From an uncultured bacterium (GTDB lineage: Bacteria > Oederibacteriota > PGYV01 > CAWJRG01): DNA of 64,000 bases. Position 1 is the first letter of the stretch. Each line of letters begins with the position of its first letter. The stretch is taken from contig CAWJRG010000001.1 of NCBI GenBank assembly GCA_963845185.1, positions 224,001 through 288,000 of the forward strand. Reading direction: 5' to 3'. Below the pieces are notes generated by a model. That model had not been told where the DNA came from, ran no database searches, and was given only the letters and a program-made list of their open reading frames with translations. The translations under genes were made by a program, and so were the position numbers. Below are positions 43,028 through 48,715 of this stretch, one piece after another.

Positions 43028-43360
43028 ATGACTGACAACCAACAGAATAACGGATTGAAGAAACCAAAGTTAACCCCAGAACAACTTTTTGATATTTATC
43101 AGGAATGTTCCTTACCCAACGCGCCAGTAAAAGCCATCCTGGAACGGTGCGGGCTTAAACCGTGGCATCTTATTGCCTTGCGTAAGAGAATCAAGCAAGC
43201 TGCCCTGTCAGAACTATCGAATCCGGCAAAATCCGGCAGAAAGAAGTCCATGGTTCCCGTAGAAAGCCTTGCTCAAGTGGATAAGGAACTTTCTCAAACA
43301 AAGGACGCGCTGGCTGCTGTCGGGCATGAGCTTGCGTTGTTAAAAAAAAAGATGAGTTGA
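43028..43360 (+). CDS. IS3-family OrfA
   Basis: HTH-like N-terminus and coiled coil; ends in LLKKK with an A9G slippery site at 43342-43351. Confidence 0.78.
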   Translation: MTDNQQNNGLKKPKLTPEQLFDIYQECSLPNAPVKAILERCGLKPWHLIALRKRIKQAALSELSNPAKSGRKKSMVPVESLAQVDKELSQTKDALAAVGHELALLKKKMS

Positions 43361-44358
43361 GTCTCAAGGGTCCTTTGAAGGGGCACTATCCGGCCCAAGT
43401 TAGGCAGATAGTTGTTATCACTATAAACGAAGCCGTACTATCCGGTTTCACGCAGAAAAGAGCTTGTTTGATCTTTGACATAGACGCCAGAAAATTCAGA
43501 CGCTGGGCTAAACTAAAAAAGAGAACGCCAAGAACGGCATGTAACAAACTGTTGCCGTTTGAAAAGACATCGATTATTGACTCTGCCTTTAGACCTGAAA
43601 ATATAGGCAAGCCATTGAGCCATATTTACGTATATGGCCATAATTCAGGCGCTTTTCATGCTTCTCTATCGACTGTATACAGGTATCTAAAAGCCGAAGA
43701 TCTCGTAAAACCATTCGAACCCAAAAAACGGAAATCTAATCATGTTTCGGCTCACGATCTTTTGGATGCTGGATTTTCCCTTTTGACCTATGACGGTTCA
43801 TGCTTCAAAACCGAGTCCGGCGTAACTGTTTGGTCCATACCGGTTCTGCTTCTGCCTTACAGGTATCTGCTGCATATCGGACACAGTTTACGCGGCGTCA
43901 GTTCAGCGGATTTACGGGATGCCGTTGCTCAAGCCATACTTGAACTGCCGGATGACTTTCCTGACAACATAGTGGCTTTTTCAGACCGCGGATCTGCTAT
44001 GAAAGCCAAAAAGACTGTTGCCTTCCTGGAAGATGTGCTAAAAATTCCTGTACGCTACGGACGCCCAAACACGCCGGATGACGAACCATGGATTGAGGCC
44101 CTGAATAAAAACTCGAAGTATCACAGGGATGTGCCGGCTGTCTTTCCAACGGTTTCAGATGTACTGGACTGGTTAGAAAAATTTAAACCACTGCATAACA
44201 ACGATCCTCATAGCTCGCTACATTATGTTACACCGGCTGAGGCGTTCGCGGGAAAAATGGAGGTGATTTTAAGCCAGAGAAAGAACAACCTGATCACTGC
44301 AAACATTATAAGGTTGGAGGCTTTCAGGGCTTCCAAGCTTCAAGTAGTGATTGGGTGA
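43357..44358 (+). CDS. IS3-family OrfB, DDE integrase core
   Basis: S.STVYRYL, TYDGS, SDRGSAM, D.PWIEA, HSSL.YVTP; -1 frame relative to orfA. Confidence 0.82.
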   Translation: MSLKGPLKGHYPAQVRQIVVITINEAVLSGFTQKRACLIFDIDARKFRRWAKLKKRTPRTACNKLLPFEKTSIIDSAFRPENIGKPLSHIYVYGHNSGAFHASLSTVYRYLKAEDLVKPFEPKKRKSNHVSAHDLLDAGFSLLTYDGSCFKTESGVTVWSIPVLLLPYRYLLHIGHSLRGVSSADLRDAVAQAILELPDDFPDNIVAFSDRGSAMKAKKTVAFLEDVLKIPVRYGRPNTPDDEPWIEALNKNSKYHRDVPAVFPTVSDVLDWLEKFKPLHNNDPHSSLHYVTPAEAFAGKMEVILSQRKNNLITANIIRLEAFRASKLQVVIG

Positions 44359-44368
44359 CGGTTTGAGG

Positions 44369-45121
44369 TCAATTAAGCTGAAAAACTCCGGTCCAGTTAG
44401 TACTCTCATTTATAATTACCTTTACTAACGTTTCTGATGCATCGTACCATTCCTGTTTAAAATCATTGCCTTTACCGTCATAGAAGGACTTATCCGCCAT
44501 AGTCAACTTTCCTGATGCATCGTAATATTCCCATTTAACATTATTGCCTTTACCATCATAAAAAAACCTACTAATTGCAATCAATTCTCCTGACGCATTG
44601 TACCTTTCACATTTAATTTTGTTATTCTTATCATCATATAAGAATTTATCCGCTTCAGTCAACTCCCCCGATGCATCATACGCATTATCCTTAAAATCAT
44701 TGCCTTTCTTATCATAAAAGTGGTTTATCACATCCGTCAACTCCCCTGATGCATTATATATTTTACCTTTAAGCGGCTTTCCTTTATTATCATAGAAAAC
44801 TTTAGTAATTTCTTTCAATTCTCCCGAAGCATCGTAAAATTTCTCCTTAATCTTGTTGCCTTTACCGTCATAGAAGGACTTAATCGCCATAGTCAACTCT
44901 CCCGATTCATTGTACACTTCACATTTAACTTCATTACCTTTATCATCGTAAAATTGTTTCTCCATACCAATTAACTTACTTTTATCTATCTTTCCAAAGC
45001 TAACACCATACGCTGAAGAAGTTACTACTTGGTTCACATACTTAGCTTCCAAACTCATAAATAAACTCATAAACAAAACTACAAACGACACACAAACAAT
45101 TAATTTTTTGTGAGTAGACAC
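44369..45121 (-). CDS. Exported repeat protein (7 x 26-aa YD/MORN-like repeats)
   Basis: Signal peptide; repeats FYDxKGN...YDASGEL; 5' end lies in the intron, 3' end runs into the IS end. Confidence 0.8.
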   Translation of the reverse strand: MSTHKKLIVCVSFVVLFMSLFMSLEAKYVNQVVTSSAYGVSFGKIDKSKLIGMEKQFYDDKGNEVKCEVYNESGELTMAIKSFYDGKGNKIKEKFYDASGELKEITKVFYDNKGKPLKGKIYNASGELTDVINHFYDKKGNDFKDNAYDASGELTEADKFLYDDKNNKIKCERYNASGELIAISRFFYDGKGNNVKWEYYDASGKLTMADKSFYDGKGNDFKQEWYDASETLVKVIINESTNWTGVFQLN

Positions 45122-45894
45122 CTTTTATAACCTCCTTTGGTTACTTAATGCCCCTCTCAGAACCGAACGTGACCGTTTCGGTCATTCGGCTCCACGGGAA
45201 TACTTCCTAATACGATGACAGCGCATAGGTTAGATGATATACCATTATACTCCGTAATTGCCCAGGGCTTTATCTTTCTTTAGCTCTCCAGGACATTCCA
45301 AAAGAGAACCCTCATTGAGCAGGTGTATATGTGTCTCTTAACTCAACTTTGGATTTTCCTTTGCACGCATAGTCAGGGTCTTAAGTTTCGTTGCCATTCC
45401 ATCTCCACCTCTGTGTGTGGCGGATGTATCCCTTACGACCCCACGCTTTTCCCTCTATCCCCTTTTCTCCATCTACTTTCATAGACTTCATCGATACTAT
45501 GGGATAGTCAGACTGCCGGGACATCTTTTACGGCTCCTCATCTTTTGGAATTTGTCGCCGCATACTCTCCTTTTGAGGATGTCTCGGCTCTCCCGAGTTC
45601 ATATCTGTTCCTTGACATCTTGACACGGCCTTAGACCCCGTCGGGTTCCCACTCTCTCGCCTTTTATGATTGTGGGACTGCTGCCTGCTTCGTTATGAAC
45701 AGTGTCGGCCTCCGACACGATGGCGATTTCGGGGCTCAATACCTTCACTTGCGTTGTATCCCGATGTCTCCCGCCTTCCAGCTTCATTTAGTTCGTTGCC
45801 TCCCTAAATGTGGAATTTGGTATTGGGCTGGTGGCTGACCTTTGCCCAAGCTGGATTTTCACCAGCGCGAACCGATACGCTTTTCTCGGCGCAC
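45110..45894 (-). ncRNA. Group II intron, ORF-less (internally deleted IEP)
   Basis: 5' GUGCG; domain V GAGCCGAAUGACCGAAACGGUCACGUUCGGUUC (45192-45160); domain VI with bulged A ending CUACUCAC. Confidence 0.88.
45245..45397 (-). pseudogene. Remnant N-terminus of group II intron reverse transcriptase
   Basis: MATKLKTLTMRAKENPKLS*ETHIHLLNEGSLLECPGELKKDKALGNYGV* resembles the IEP N-terminus/RT0 (HLL...L.K.KAPGIDGV). Confidence 0.75.
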
Positions 45895-45909
45895 TCATTT
45901 ACGCCTCCC

Positions 45910-45969
45910 TTGATGATGTTTATTTTGTCGAACCGTCAACAGGCGAAAACAAAATATTACAGCACTCAA
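45910..45969 (-). ncRNA. Candidate leader hairpin motif (copy 3, RBS-proximal stem only)
   Basis: AUUUUGU...CGCCUGUUGACGGUU...ACAAAAU followed by AAGGGAGG-N5-AUG. Confidence 0.5.
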
Positions 45970-46015: not shown

Positions 46016-46043
46016 ATTATACCCCTTCTTTTCACGCTGTCAA
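46016..46043 (-). promoter_or_regulatory. Consensus sigma70 promoter driving the intron-containing gene
   Basis: TTGACA-16-TATAAT. Confidence 0.7.
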
Positions 46044-46073: not shown

Positions 46074-46430
46074 CTATCTTTTCTTCATCCACTTTTCACC
46101 CACTTCACAACCTGCTTGAATATCGCATGCCCTATCTTGCCGAAAAGCGGCTTCGGCACATGGTTCTCCGCCTGCGGTGGAACCCCGCCGACAGGAATCG
46201 GTGGTCCCTTAATAACCACCGGAGGTTACTGGAGCTACCGCTTCCAGTCCAAATAGCTAATATGCGACGTCCGCCGAAGCAGAACTTTCTGCGTAGGCGG
46301 ATAATGAGTTCCCTCCGAAAAGGCCATAGTCCCGAGCGAAGTCGAGCGGATATAATTTCATCACCAACTGGAGTTGGGGGGAATTTCTTTCCGGATTATT
46401 ATATTGTGCACCAGCTCAAAGCCGGGGTTT
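46074..46430 (-). pseudogene. Duplicated 3' end of the ParB-like gene, interrupted by element copy 3
   Basis: GFELVHNII|TQAENHVPKPLFGKIGHAIFKQVVKWVK versus GFELAHNIITQAENHVPKSLLGKIGHAVFKQVVKWVK at 47453-47586. Confidence 0.8.
46177..46395 (-). mobile_element. Non-autonomous multi-hairpin element, copy 3 (219 bp, two internal insertions)
   Basis: Same ends as copies 1 and 2; empty site visible at 47556/47557. Confidence 0.8.
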
Positions 46431-46594: not shown

Positions 46595-46948
46595 TTACCT
46601 GCGCGCGGCGGCCCGTCTGTGTCCCGGGGAATTAACAAGTTCCAGCCTTAAGCTTTTACCAAGGCCATTCGCTATTTTTTTTAAGGTCTGATATTTCGCG
46701 TCGTCAATATTTTCCATCGCGCGTGATAAAACAAAAGGATTTATCCCCGCATTTTTGGCAAGGGCGTATTTGGTCATATGCTTTTTTTTCAGTTCTTTAT
46801 TTACCTTTTCCATGAAATAAAAAAGCTCCATTTCATCGGCATAGGCTTTGCGCCCTTCTTCGCTTTTACCGGCTTCGTCAAAAATCTTTTGAACCTCATC
46901 CTTTGGCGCGATTTTTAAGTCCGCTTCAGTAATTTTGATTTTTTTCAT
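46595..46948 (-). CDS. XRE/HTH antitoxin (HigA-like)
   Basis: MTKYALAKNAGI....LSR...TLKKIANGLG; follows the toxin with overlap. Confidence 0.8.
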   Translation of the reverse strand: MKKIKITEADLKIAPKDEVQKIFDEAGKSEEGRKAYADEMELFYFMEKVNKELKKKHMTKYALAKNAGINPFVLSRAMENIDDAKYQTLKKIANGLGKSLRLELVNSPGHRRAAARR

Positions 46949-47289
46949 GTTGTTTTTCTCCTTTCCAGCATAATGTTTTTTATTATATTCCCTTTCTCAT
47001 ACTCCCGCCTGTTTTTCTTCTTCTGGTTTTTCTCCACAAAAGAATTGACAAACTGCGCGTGATTGCCCGACCAGAAATAAATCAGCCTGTATTCGATATT
47101 GTTAAAGCCCGGCCTCAATTCGTAAAGATTTGTAAAACCCTCGATTTTATCGGAATAAGGCTTTCTGATGTCGTGCCCTTTAATCAGCAGTATGTCTATA
47201 TACGCCTGAATTTTCTTTTTCAAACCGTCCGATAAATCCATAATTTGCTGTTTTACTGTTTCATTCAAACTGTATGTCACGGGCTCCAC
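46945..47289 (-). CDS. RelE/ParE (HigB/Gp49-like) toxin
   Basis: PYSDKIEG..NLYELR...YRLIYF...F.EK; GTG start after AAAGGAG. Confidence 0.8.
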   Translation of the reverse strand: MEPVTYSLNETVKQQIMDLSDGLKKKIQAYIDILLIKGHDIRKPYSDKIEGFTNLYELRPGFNNIEYRLIYFWSGNHAQFVNSFVEKNQKKKNRREYEKGNIIKNIMLERRKTT

Positions 47290-47313
47290 GCGTTCATCTC
47301 CTTTATCAATAAG

Positions 47314-47342
47314 ATTATACACATTTATGTGTACATTATCAA
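47314..47342 (-). promoter_or_regulatory. TA promoter with palindromic operator
   Basis: TTGATA-17-TATAAT; TACACAT-N2-ATGTGTA at 47318-47333. Confidence 0.72.
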
Positions 47343-47452: not shown

Positions 47453-48715
47453 CTATCTTTTCTTCATCCACTTTTTCACCCACTTCACGACCTGCTTGAA
47501 CACCGCATGCCCTATTTTGCCTAAAAGCGACTTCGGCACGTGGTTTTCCGCCTGCGTTATAATATTGTGCGCCAGCTCAAAGCCAGAATTCAATTTGGGA
47601 TTTTCAGAGTTTGGAATTTGTGATTCACTTACCATACCCTCACCCTGAACATCTTGAGCTTTTGAACCTTGAACTTTTCCTACCTCTTGCCCCCCTTGAA
47701 CATTGAGCCTTGAACCTTGAACTTCTTTTATGATCGCCGGCAAGTCTGCCCAATACGGGTTATCCTCCAGTTTGCTATCCTTGTGTCCCAGCCACCATAT
47801 TGCTCCTGCTGCGCCAAGCGCTGCCAATACGCCGCTATCCTCGTCCGCTATTATAATATGAACACCACCCTTTGCCGGACTTTTTATCTGAAAATATCCA
47901 GTCTCCCTCATCTCCTGTAACAGCTTGGCATACCGCCCGTCTTGCCCATCGCCCGCCGAATGTTCCCCCTCACCCAGACCCTCTCCCGCAAGGGGCGAGG
48001 GGTGTGTTTTGCCGCCCTCCCCGAAGGATTCCGGTGTATTGCCTGCTTTTATCCATGCAGCTATCTTTTTGGCTTGTTTTTCAGTCATTTTCCGCTCAAT
48101 AAGCACTTTTATGGTCTTTTCCATCTTATCCACGTCATCTGGATAGCCATTCGCAAGCCCAGTAAGGGCAATAACAGCAGATTCAGGTATCTTCCAGCCT
48201 GTGGATAACTCCGGATTCCGGAGTTGTCCACATATTTGCTCCCTTGCCGCTGTATTCAACAGCCCCATTACCTTTGCCACATTCCCTACATATTGAAACC
48301 TTAACTGGAGCCTGTCCGCGACTTCCTGATTGTTGAGATCAGGGCATAAAGCCATGTATTTTTCAATACCCAGGTAGTTGTCAAACCAGTTCGGCGGCTC
48401 CGCTTTATTGCCCATAATCAACTCCAGCATCTCATCCGCCGGGCTGAGGCCCTTCACAACAACCGCCTCTATCTCGGTCCAGCCGTTCTGCTTAGCGCCT
48501 GCGTACCTGTAGTGCCCGCATAGGATGTAATAATTGATTCCCTGACCCAGTAGGCCATCGCCGGCCTTTCTATCGTCAGTCAAAAGCGCCAGCTTGACAG
48601 GGTTCAGCAGCCCGTCCTTATCCATGGACTTCGCGACAGCATCCGTAATGTCCTGCTGCAGGAAGCTCCTCGGGTTGTTTGGATGCGGCTTAATCTCGGA
48701 AATAGGTATCTTCAT
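47453..48715 (-). CDS. ParB/Srx N-terminal domain protein with HTH
   Basis: IKPHPNNPR, GLLNPV, ILCGHYRY.....GW.EI; HTH NQEVADRL. Confidence 0.8.
   Translation of the reverse strand: MKIPISEIKPHPNNPRSFLQQDITDAVAKSMDKDGLLNPVKLALLTDDRKAGDGLLGQGINYYILCGHYRYAGAKQNGWTEIEAVVVKGLSPADEMLELIMGNKAEPPNWFDNYLGIEKYMALCPDLNNQEVADRLQLRFQYVGNVAKVMGLLNTAAREQICGQLRNPELSTGWKIPESAVIALTGLANGYPDDVDKMEKTIKVLIERKMTEKQAKKIAAWIKAGNTPESFGEGGKTHPSPLAGEGLGEGEHSAGDGQDGRYAKLLQEMRETGYFQIKSPAKGGVHIIIADEDSGVLAALGAAGAIWWLGHKDSKLEDNPYWADLPAIIKEVQGSRLNVQGGQEVGKVQGSKAQDVQGEGMVSESQIPNSENPKLNSGFELAHNIITQAENHVPKSLLGKIGHAVFKQVVKWVKKWMKKR

Follow-up and report, generated by a model that had tools for sequence, protein, structure and literature searches.

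A 64-kb window (64,000 nt) of contig CAWJRG010000001.1, from an uncultured member of the Oederibacteriota, contains a group II intron that is an open reading frame (ORF)-deleted copy of a mobile intron and interrupts a gene for a secreted repeat protein one base after its start codon. The intron belongs to a family for which specialisation on start codons is strongly supported, and most members of which carry, in domain VI, a Shine-Dalgarno (SD) sequence and a start codon in phase with the downstream exon. We think it likely that the window copy, which lacks its own reverse transcriptase (RT), is spliced in frame and that the domain VI start cassette acts as a translation bypass. All coordinates of the intron locus refer to the minus strand of the window, and the positions of the features are given in Table 1.

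An RT-less copy of a mobile group II intron

The feature had been predicted to be a group II intron, and it is one. The domain I core matches RF02005 over the full model (1-225), scoring 106.3 bits where the gathering score is 49, and domains V and VI match RF00029 at 45194-45108 with 49.0 bits (gathering score 40), this being the single match in the window, i.e. one unit of domains V and VI (D5/6). Along with the GUGCG 5´ end and domain V, the intron has a domain VI with a bulged branch A at 45115, the seventh base from the intron 3´ end. An intact intron-encoded RT/maturase is present in the siblings described below and missing from the window copy. As the original prediction had recognised, a remnant of the RT persists; it comprises codons 1-50, with one stop, and the last 11 codons. 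Codons 51-425 are gone, and the first ~150 nt of domain IV are kept.

A full-length sibling with an intact RT, the search for which had been proposed as a check, turned up six times in the same genome. The DNA search of the assembly gave 13 matches, corresponding to the window copy and six full-length copies, each split in two. These siblings are 1905-1908 nt long and nearly identical among themselves, and five of the six have an intact ORF for a 436-aa intron-encoded protein (IEP), copy D being frameshifted near the C-terminus. The IEP matches RVT_1 (E 9.4e-41) and has no endonuclease domain; a second Pfam match, RdRP_1 (E 1.4e-06), falls inside the RVT_1 stretch. In pairwise comparison with PDB entries, group IIC and IIA RTs (1.8e-45) are better matches than the Thermosynechococcus elongatus maturase (2.5e-33). 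The window copy is 89.5% identical to the siblings over its 5´ 647 nt and 97.7% identical over its 3´ 133 nt, and they are its closest relatives among all sequences fetched. DNA searches for the intron in other genomes of the class found it in none of 23, and the bacterium's own taxonomic family holds no further genome.

The Rfam scores of the window copy are as good as those of sibling L002 (101.5 and 49.3 bits), which indicates that the ribozyme shows no decay; the label 'domesticated' that had been attached to it is not borne out. The five intact sibling IEPs suggest that a maturase is available to the window copy, which would need that of one of these five siblings, in trans.

The promoter that had been predicted for the host gene is a perfect sigma-70-type sequence, TTGACA-16-TATAAT; promoter-like sites in this region number 10, against 4.5 ± 2.2 in shuffles. 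The 5´ exon likewise ends as had been described, with an SD, an ATG and an A followed directly by GUGCG. A leader hairpin had been predicted as well and did not hold up, as the leader upstream of the intron folds no better than shuffled sequences (z = -0.40, with 62 of 200 shuffles folding equally well or better). The host protein matches PF05593 (E 5.9e-6) without any single stretch passing alone. Its 3´ exon can be read in phase from the spliced ATG and also from a GUG in domain VI, the latter opening a 250-codon frame (45121..44369). On unspliced RNA, the upstream ORF that begins at the exon-1 ATG stops within the intron after 5-47 codons, and the position of the stop is not conserved.

The intron family is specialised for start codons

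A family set of 141 sequences was assembled from 54 loci in species-representative genomes, obtained by a search with the sibling IEP, the best 80 of 330 matching metagenome stretches and the seven copies of the genome itself. Intron ends were located by family-consensus regular expressions; 5´ flanks were counted for 81 sequences with at least 20 nt of flank (77 distinct) and 3´ flanks for 75 distinct sequences with at least 92 nt.

All seven own-genome copies are found at GGAGG-N5-6-ATGA, and 66 of the 77 distinct 5´ flanks end one base beyond an NTG (57 in ATGA, 7 in ATGG, 1 in GTGG and 1 in GTGA), with an SD core upstream in 62 of the 66. One other flank ends exactly at ATG and ten end elsewhere. 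These counts strongly support the specialisation for translation starts that had been proposed from the window copy. On the 3´ side, the first base of exon 2 is A in 66 of 75 flanks, and the first two are AA in 50. The expected frame is open for 30 codons in 61 of these 75, compared with 10 and 16 for the two other frames, and half of the 14 closed flanks come from introns that do not have a start site on the 5´ side.

The interrupted genes encode lipoproteins, P-II, a PurM-type enzyme, a sulfatase and an IS110 transposase, among others. Relatives were found in metagenome-assembled genomes bearing the labels of a dozen or so phyla and candidate phyla, including one archaeon, which suggests that the family is common in uncultivated anaerobes.

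The 3´ boundary and the reading frame

The original prediction ended the intron at 45110, with a length of ~785 nt, and from this concluded that canonical splicing leaves the gene one base out of frame. The seven own-genome copies are all flanked alike (GGAGG-N5-6-ATGA / GUGCG...CUCAC / AAA...), and each of the seven genes has a single open frame, which encodes a hydrophobic N-terminus resembling that of a signal peptide or lipoprotein and begins at the first A after CUCAC. A unit ending at CUCAC would thus put all seven pre-insertion genes out of frame, which argues that the mobile unit holds one more A.

The relatives point the same way. In an IEP tree built with FastTree, which gives local support only and in which rows L039 and L109 (a wrongly extracted ORF) are to be disregarded, the own-genome copies fall inside a 19-row clade with support of 100. 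The known 3´ ends in this clade are all CUCACA except for one CUCAAA; most other family members end in CUCGAC. Within the clade, the frame set by CUCACA gives the native N-termini of P-II, Response_reg, NifU, AIRS (PurM-type) and ExoVII_S proteins, with residue 5 of the P-II host aligning to profile position 2. The CUCACA end also makes the branch A the seventh base from the 3´ terminus, the position that it has in the CUCGAC clade and the outgroup introns as well. We take the relatives to settle the point, and strongly favour CUCACA as the boundary of an intron that would run from 45894 to 45109, a length of 786 nt. The predicted ligation, ATG-A/AA-AAA-TTA, is in frame and encodes MKKLIV; the apparent shift of one base arises solely from a boundary set 1 nt too early. 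A unit shifted one base in the 5´ direction, AGUGCG...CUCAC, is inseparable by genomic comparison and yields an identical ligated product. GUGCG...CUCACA is preferred because of the EBS1 pairing (see below) and the near-universal 5´ G. A search of the genome with the host protein returned only a distant paralogue (28% identity), which was of no help on the boundary.

Target recognition by EBS1

Exon-binding site 1 (EBS1) is the loop of the first hairpin of subdomain Id, which covaries with the last six bases of the 5´ exon, as illustrated by the combinations GAGUGG/CCACUC, CUUAUG/CAUAAG, CACGGA/UCCGUG and GCGGCA/UGCCGC. Pairing between EBS1 and intron-binding site 1 (IBS1) extends to six of six positions in 43 of 77 introns and to five of six in another 31. 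The mean is 5.52 of 6 pairs, compared with a permutation mean of 4.83, and none of 1000 permutations reaches the observed value. The siblings pair at five or six of the six positions. Two EBS1 candidates had been put forward for the window copy; the one near 45697 lies in the covarying loop, and the one near 45670 is not EBS1. The IBS1 of the window copy is AAATGA, the six terminal nucleotides of the exon. As IBS1 includes the start codon, EBS1 and an initiating ribosome would be expected to compete for the same bases.

We also looked for an EBS2 by scanning the columns of domain I against exon positions -22 to -1, which recovered EBS1 and otherwise only a generic pyrimidine stretch facing the purine-rich SD. 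The candidates CCGCC (nt 61-65) and AUCGCC (in an internal loop) were rejected, as they fit the six sibling sites and not the relatives. The SD is nonetheless a marked feature of the occupied sites. TTATGAA occurs 1099 times in the genome, only 36 times with GGAGG 2-5 nt upstream, and four of five GGAGGCGG-N0-1-WTATGA sites are occupied by intron copies. This rarity and this occupancy suggest that the SD bias is more than post-hoc selection on ATGA sites. An unoccupied site, GGAGGTAATTATGAAAAAAA, is located at C9:703849 (+) of the same genome (G000), 2 kb from the occupied site of sibling D (C9:699945-701852), and the distant paralogue of the host protein lies between the two.

Several family members have unusual sites or structures. 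A sublineage (L030, L104, L135 and L137) has been re-targeted to a shared non-start site, GGGGUCAG..CU(U/G)(U/C/G)A, which matches its EBS1; in these introns the domain VI SD is lost and the AUG is kept. L073 and L074 share an identical 5´ flank and have different 3´ exons, reflecting either recombination between intron copies or chimeric assembly. In L041 and L042 the IEP match stops at residue 251, in the YADD region, and is followed by a further GUGCGCC... start and RT ORF, an arrangement that looks like a twintron. Close to where domain I begins, ~38 nt from the intron start, L025, L026, L028, L030, L032 and L036 have inserts of 30-60 nt, and those of L028, L032 and L036 contain an SD-N-ATGA-like string resembling the family target site.

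A putative start cassette in domain VI

The original prediction of an SD and an in-frame GUG in domain VI was confirmed, and the property is conserved across the family. In the window copy, the SD AAAGGAGG is in the apical loop and the GUG, AUG in the siblings, follows nine bases downstream, at a distance of 13 nt from the intron end that puts it in phase with exon 2. The consensus structure of 53 domain VI sequences has 14 pairs, 7 of them with compensatory changes, and places the SD in the apical loop and the AUG in the lower stem, paired with CAU. Among 65 distinct domain VI sequences, 55 have an SD and an AUG or GUG 13 nt from the end, and in two more the SD is combined with an AUG at 16 nt, a shift of one whole codon that preserves the phase. 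Four others have an AUG at -13 without a strict SD, and the last four have neither feature in phase, or no SD. For introns with both flanks known, an SD and an in-phase start are found in 55 of 56 at start sites (53 at -13 and 2 at -16), compared with one of eight at other sites. The cassette is absent from all eight outgroup introns of another ribozyme type (RF02001/RF01998).

Read-through from the cassette would give MSTRQ... in the CUCGAC clade, with Lys2 replaced, and MSTHK... in the CUCACA clade, with the native Lys codon restored. Judging from this arrangement, the interrupted gene is probably translatable with or without splicing, and the domain VI cassette may serve as a translation bypass for unspliced RNA.

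Domain VI also varies in size. About 70 extra nt, with a conserved CUCCUC...GAGGAG hairpin, are found within it in L019, L026, L034, L045, L100, L110, L111 and L120, upstream of the usual SD-AUG-UCUACUCGAC tail. In the insert-bearing members at non-start sites (L034 and L045), the SD is degraded.

Proposed mechanism and alternative explanations

In the explanation that we consider likely, the family would retrohome into translation starts, the EBS1 loop pairing with the six final exon bases, which include the start codon and one further base. Insertion would then fall between bases 1 and 2 of codon 2, usually in genes that begin ATG-A/AA (Met-Lys). For the window copy, splicing at GUGCG...CUCACA would rejoin ATG-A with AA-AAA-TTA to give MKKLIV, helped in trans by the maturase of an intact sibling. 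On RNA that stays unspliced, ribosomes would initiate at the domain VI start and produce a host protein in which MSTH replaces the initiator Met, and insertion at a start codon would thereby be nearly harmless, spliced or not. A broader proposal, for which we see about as much in favour as against, is that a portable start cassette of this kind makes start insertion harmless without splicing and opens almost any Met-Lys gene to the intron, essential ones such as those for P-II, PurM-type and NifU-type proteins included. Ribosome and ribozyme would then compete, and two isoforms (MKK... and MSTHKK...) would be made in a ratio set by splicing.

A number of points weigh against these proposals. 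EBS1-IBS1 pairing in the window copy covers only four of the six positions, and the copy may therefore splice poorly. A search for sequencing runs containing the locus listed five DNA runs, each with a fraction of just 0.04-0.07 of the sampled words, and no RNA run. An intron 3´ end in CA deviates from the usual AY, and the candidate gamma positions in the junction between domains II and III (J2/3) show no covariation with the last intron base. The scan of domain I found no EBS2 or other reader of the SD that would tell real starts from other ATGA sites. The start codon of the cassette is base-paired in the domain VI stem, which could limit initiation on folded RNA. With the insertion point fixed, its phase amounts in large part to a single inherited trait, and the structure around the branch site places a further constraint on the 13-nt tail. 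As for the family counts, locating ends by consensus expressions under-samples divergent ends, and a repeat of 1.9 kb can give rise to chimeric metagenome contigs, as the L073/L074 case illustrates, which calls for caution in pairing flanks.

In a different reading, which we judge rather unlikely, the SD-like loop and the AUG of domain VI serve the intron itself, as a tertiary contact, a site for an RNA-stabilising protein or the ribosome, or a structural element, and the phase with exon 2 is an inherited accident. The AUG is part of a conserved domain VI helix and is kept by sublineages off start codons (L104, L137, L034 and L045), the phase follows from a fixed insertion point, and a group II intron RNA is reported to associate with ribosomes (PMC3851717). 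What tells against an intron-serving role is that the SD is lost in seven of the eight introns off start codons and kept in nearly all of those on them (55/56), that SD-to-start spacing stays at 5-10 nt while the sequence of the distal stem changes, and that where the AUG has moved (L087 and L107) it has shifted by exactly 3 nt. In addition, the last base of the CUCACA clade gives the read-through product its native AAA Lys codon back, and no CCUCC-type complementary partner stands out in domain I. We also consider it improbable that the window copy is dead, no longer splices and is kept only because the domain VI SD and GUG are now the real start of the gene. The loss of its IEP, the ~10% divergence from the siblings and the weaker EBS1-IBS1 pairing (5-6/6 in the siblings) are in keeping with such a relic; Rfam scores equal to or above those of the mobile siblings, the retained 5´ GUGCG, domain V, branch A and domain IV start, and the five intact sibling IEPs all argue against it. 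The suggestion that splicing acts as an ON/OFF switch is the least credible of the alternatives, and we regard it as very improbable. According to it, the intron ends at CUCAC and joins ATGA to six A's out of frame, such that splicing turns the gene OFF and the protein comes from unspliced RNA or an alternative site. The frame arithmetic is right for that boundary, CUCAC would be a usual A-pyrimidine end, and the candidate J2/3 bases are unchanged between the ACA and GAC clades, which fits a conserved terminal C. With the boundary moved to CUCACA and splicing in frame, however, the idea loses its basis: an identical 'frameshift' at all seven own-genome copies would mean that every pre-insertion gene was out of frame, and within this clade of IEPs five conserved protein families recover their native N-termini with CUCACA. 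A CUCAC end would also bring the distance from the domain VI start to the intron end to 12 nt, when it is 13 or 16 nt in 57 of 65 distinct domain VI sequences, and would make the branch A the sixth base from the end rather than the seventh, unlike in the GAC clade and the outgroup introns.

Features of the locus and neighbouring genes

Table 1. Features of the intron-bearing locus, with positions in the 64-kb window
Feature	Position	Strand	Basis
Sigma-70-type promoter (predicted)	46016..46043	-	12/12 consensus matches
5´ exon end: SD AAGGGAGG (45911-45904), ATG (45898-45896) and A (45895; codon 2, base 1)	45895..45911	-	Sequence; layout common to 7/7 own-genome copies
Group II intron, 786 nt, GUGCG...CUCACA (strongly favoured boundary)	45109..45894	-	Rfam, siblings and clade boundary; 45110-45895 is an equivalent description with the same ligated exons
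Domain I core (Rfam group-II-D1D4-6)	45626..45859	-	RF02005, 106.3 bits; sibling L002, 101.5
EBS1 (UCAUAA), loop of the first hairpin of subdomain Id	45693..45698	-	Covariation with exon positions -6 to -1
Remnant of IEP codons 1-50, stop at codon 20, inside the start of domain IV	45248..45397	-	tblastn, 34/50 identical to sibling IEP
Remnant of the final 11 IEP codons (426-436)	45210..45242	-	tblastn; codons 51-425 deleted between the remnants
Domain V	45160..45192	-	RF00029 alignment, coordinates taken from the sequence
Domain VI: SD AAAGGAGG (45138-45131) in the apical loop, GUG (45121-45119) paired with CAU; ACA linker (45111-45109)	45112..45156	-	Consensus fold of 53 domain VI sequences
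3´ exon, secreted repeat protein	44369..45108	-	Weak RHS/YD-type repeat matches

Just upstream of the promoter, a short ORF at 46085-46219 (-) repeats 30-odd C-terminal residues of the ParB_N-domain protein encoded at 47453-48715 (repeated part 47453-47560 (-)), with the pattern ...HVPK.L.GKIGHA.FKQVVKWVK... in common, suggesting that a piece of the 3´ end of that gene was duplicated beside the intron-bearing gene. Between the two, at 46595-47322 (-), overlapping small genes encode a Gp49-like/DUF891 protein (PF05973, E 9.6e-12) followed by an HTH_3 protein, a layout typical of a toxin-antitoxin pair. On the other side, a two-ORF transposase-like element at 43028-44358 (+) converges on the 3´ end of the intron-bearing gene, stopping 11 nt from its stop codon; its second ORF has a weak rve_3 integrase-core match below the Pfam cut-off.

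Relation to known introns and significance

Group IIC introns insert just after a terminator-type hairpin. No terminator-like site was found upstream on the minus strand of the window, and the 5´ exons here end in SD-N-ATG-N instead. Outward promoters and integron attC targets are described for group IIC-attC introns (PMC3001079), which resemble the present family in combining a specialised target with expression signals for the downstream gene; here the signals are an SD and an in-phase start, and the target is a start codon.

A parallel in targeting is offered by a specialised IIB1 lineage at initiation and termination codons, which includes Avi.groEL and EcKTE56.groEL (Michel et al., 2007, as summarised in PMC12584367). 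According to that summary, these mobile introns lie in or beside start or stop codons, and the groEL insertion swaps the stop codon such that the host reading is preserved. What defines the lineage there is an insertion of 300-700 nt close to the 5´ end of domain I; its IEP is large, and the EcKTE56 construct kept 127 nt of the ORF after deletion of 1867 nt. Our introns differ in having no large 5´ insertion (the RF02005 match begins 35 nt into the intron, and the ribozyme outside the ORF is ~650 nt), a 436-aa IEP without an endonuclease domain, any Met-Lys-type start as a target, and an SD and start codon in domain VI. The 30-60-nt inserts of a few relatives lie roughly where that lineage has its large insertion.

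C.te.I1 of Clostridium tetani is a class B, ORF-less intron without EBS2, and downstream ORFs are annotated as starting in its D5/6 (PMC3919590). As described in that paper, it follows a stop codon, has four D5/6 repeats for alternative 3´ splicing that fuses exons, and has no IEP in the genome. The window copy has one D5/6, a start-codon site, mobile siblings and an SD conserved family-wide. The TeI3 introns of T. elongatus are similar in that ORF-deleted copies exist beside ORF-carrying relatives, whose IEPs can act in trans (PMC2882425). The window copy likewise has intact sibling IEPs in its genome and keeps the start of domain IV, and trans action is predicted for it. The TeI3 introns occupy varied sites, one of which separates the two start codons in the RT ORF of another intron, and the account of them in PMC2882425 describes no domain VI start cassette.

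A 2015 review lists three target specificities of bacterial group II introns, namely homing sites, terminators and attC sites (PMC4424553). Our literature search, in which Michel et al. (2007) was not included, turned up no description of introns at start codons with an SD and start in domain VI, which leaves priority uncertain. The family is apparently an undescribed group II variant, one that homes to start codons and carries a start cassette in domain VI. The prevailing view is that group II introns in bacteria persist chiefly by keeping out of genes. If the explanation favoured here is true, a lineage that targets translation starts and supplies a ribosome-binding site and start codon in replacement would add a fourth strategy to homing sites, terminators and attC sites. 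It would also be a clear example of a selfish element that makes good, in translation, the damage it causes. There is also a consequence for annotation, in that gene callers will place starts at the intron AUG (MSTH... or MSTR...), hiding both the intron and the true N-terminus.

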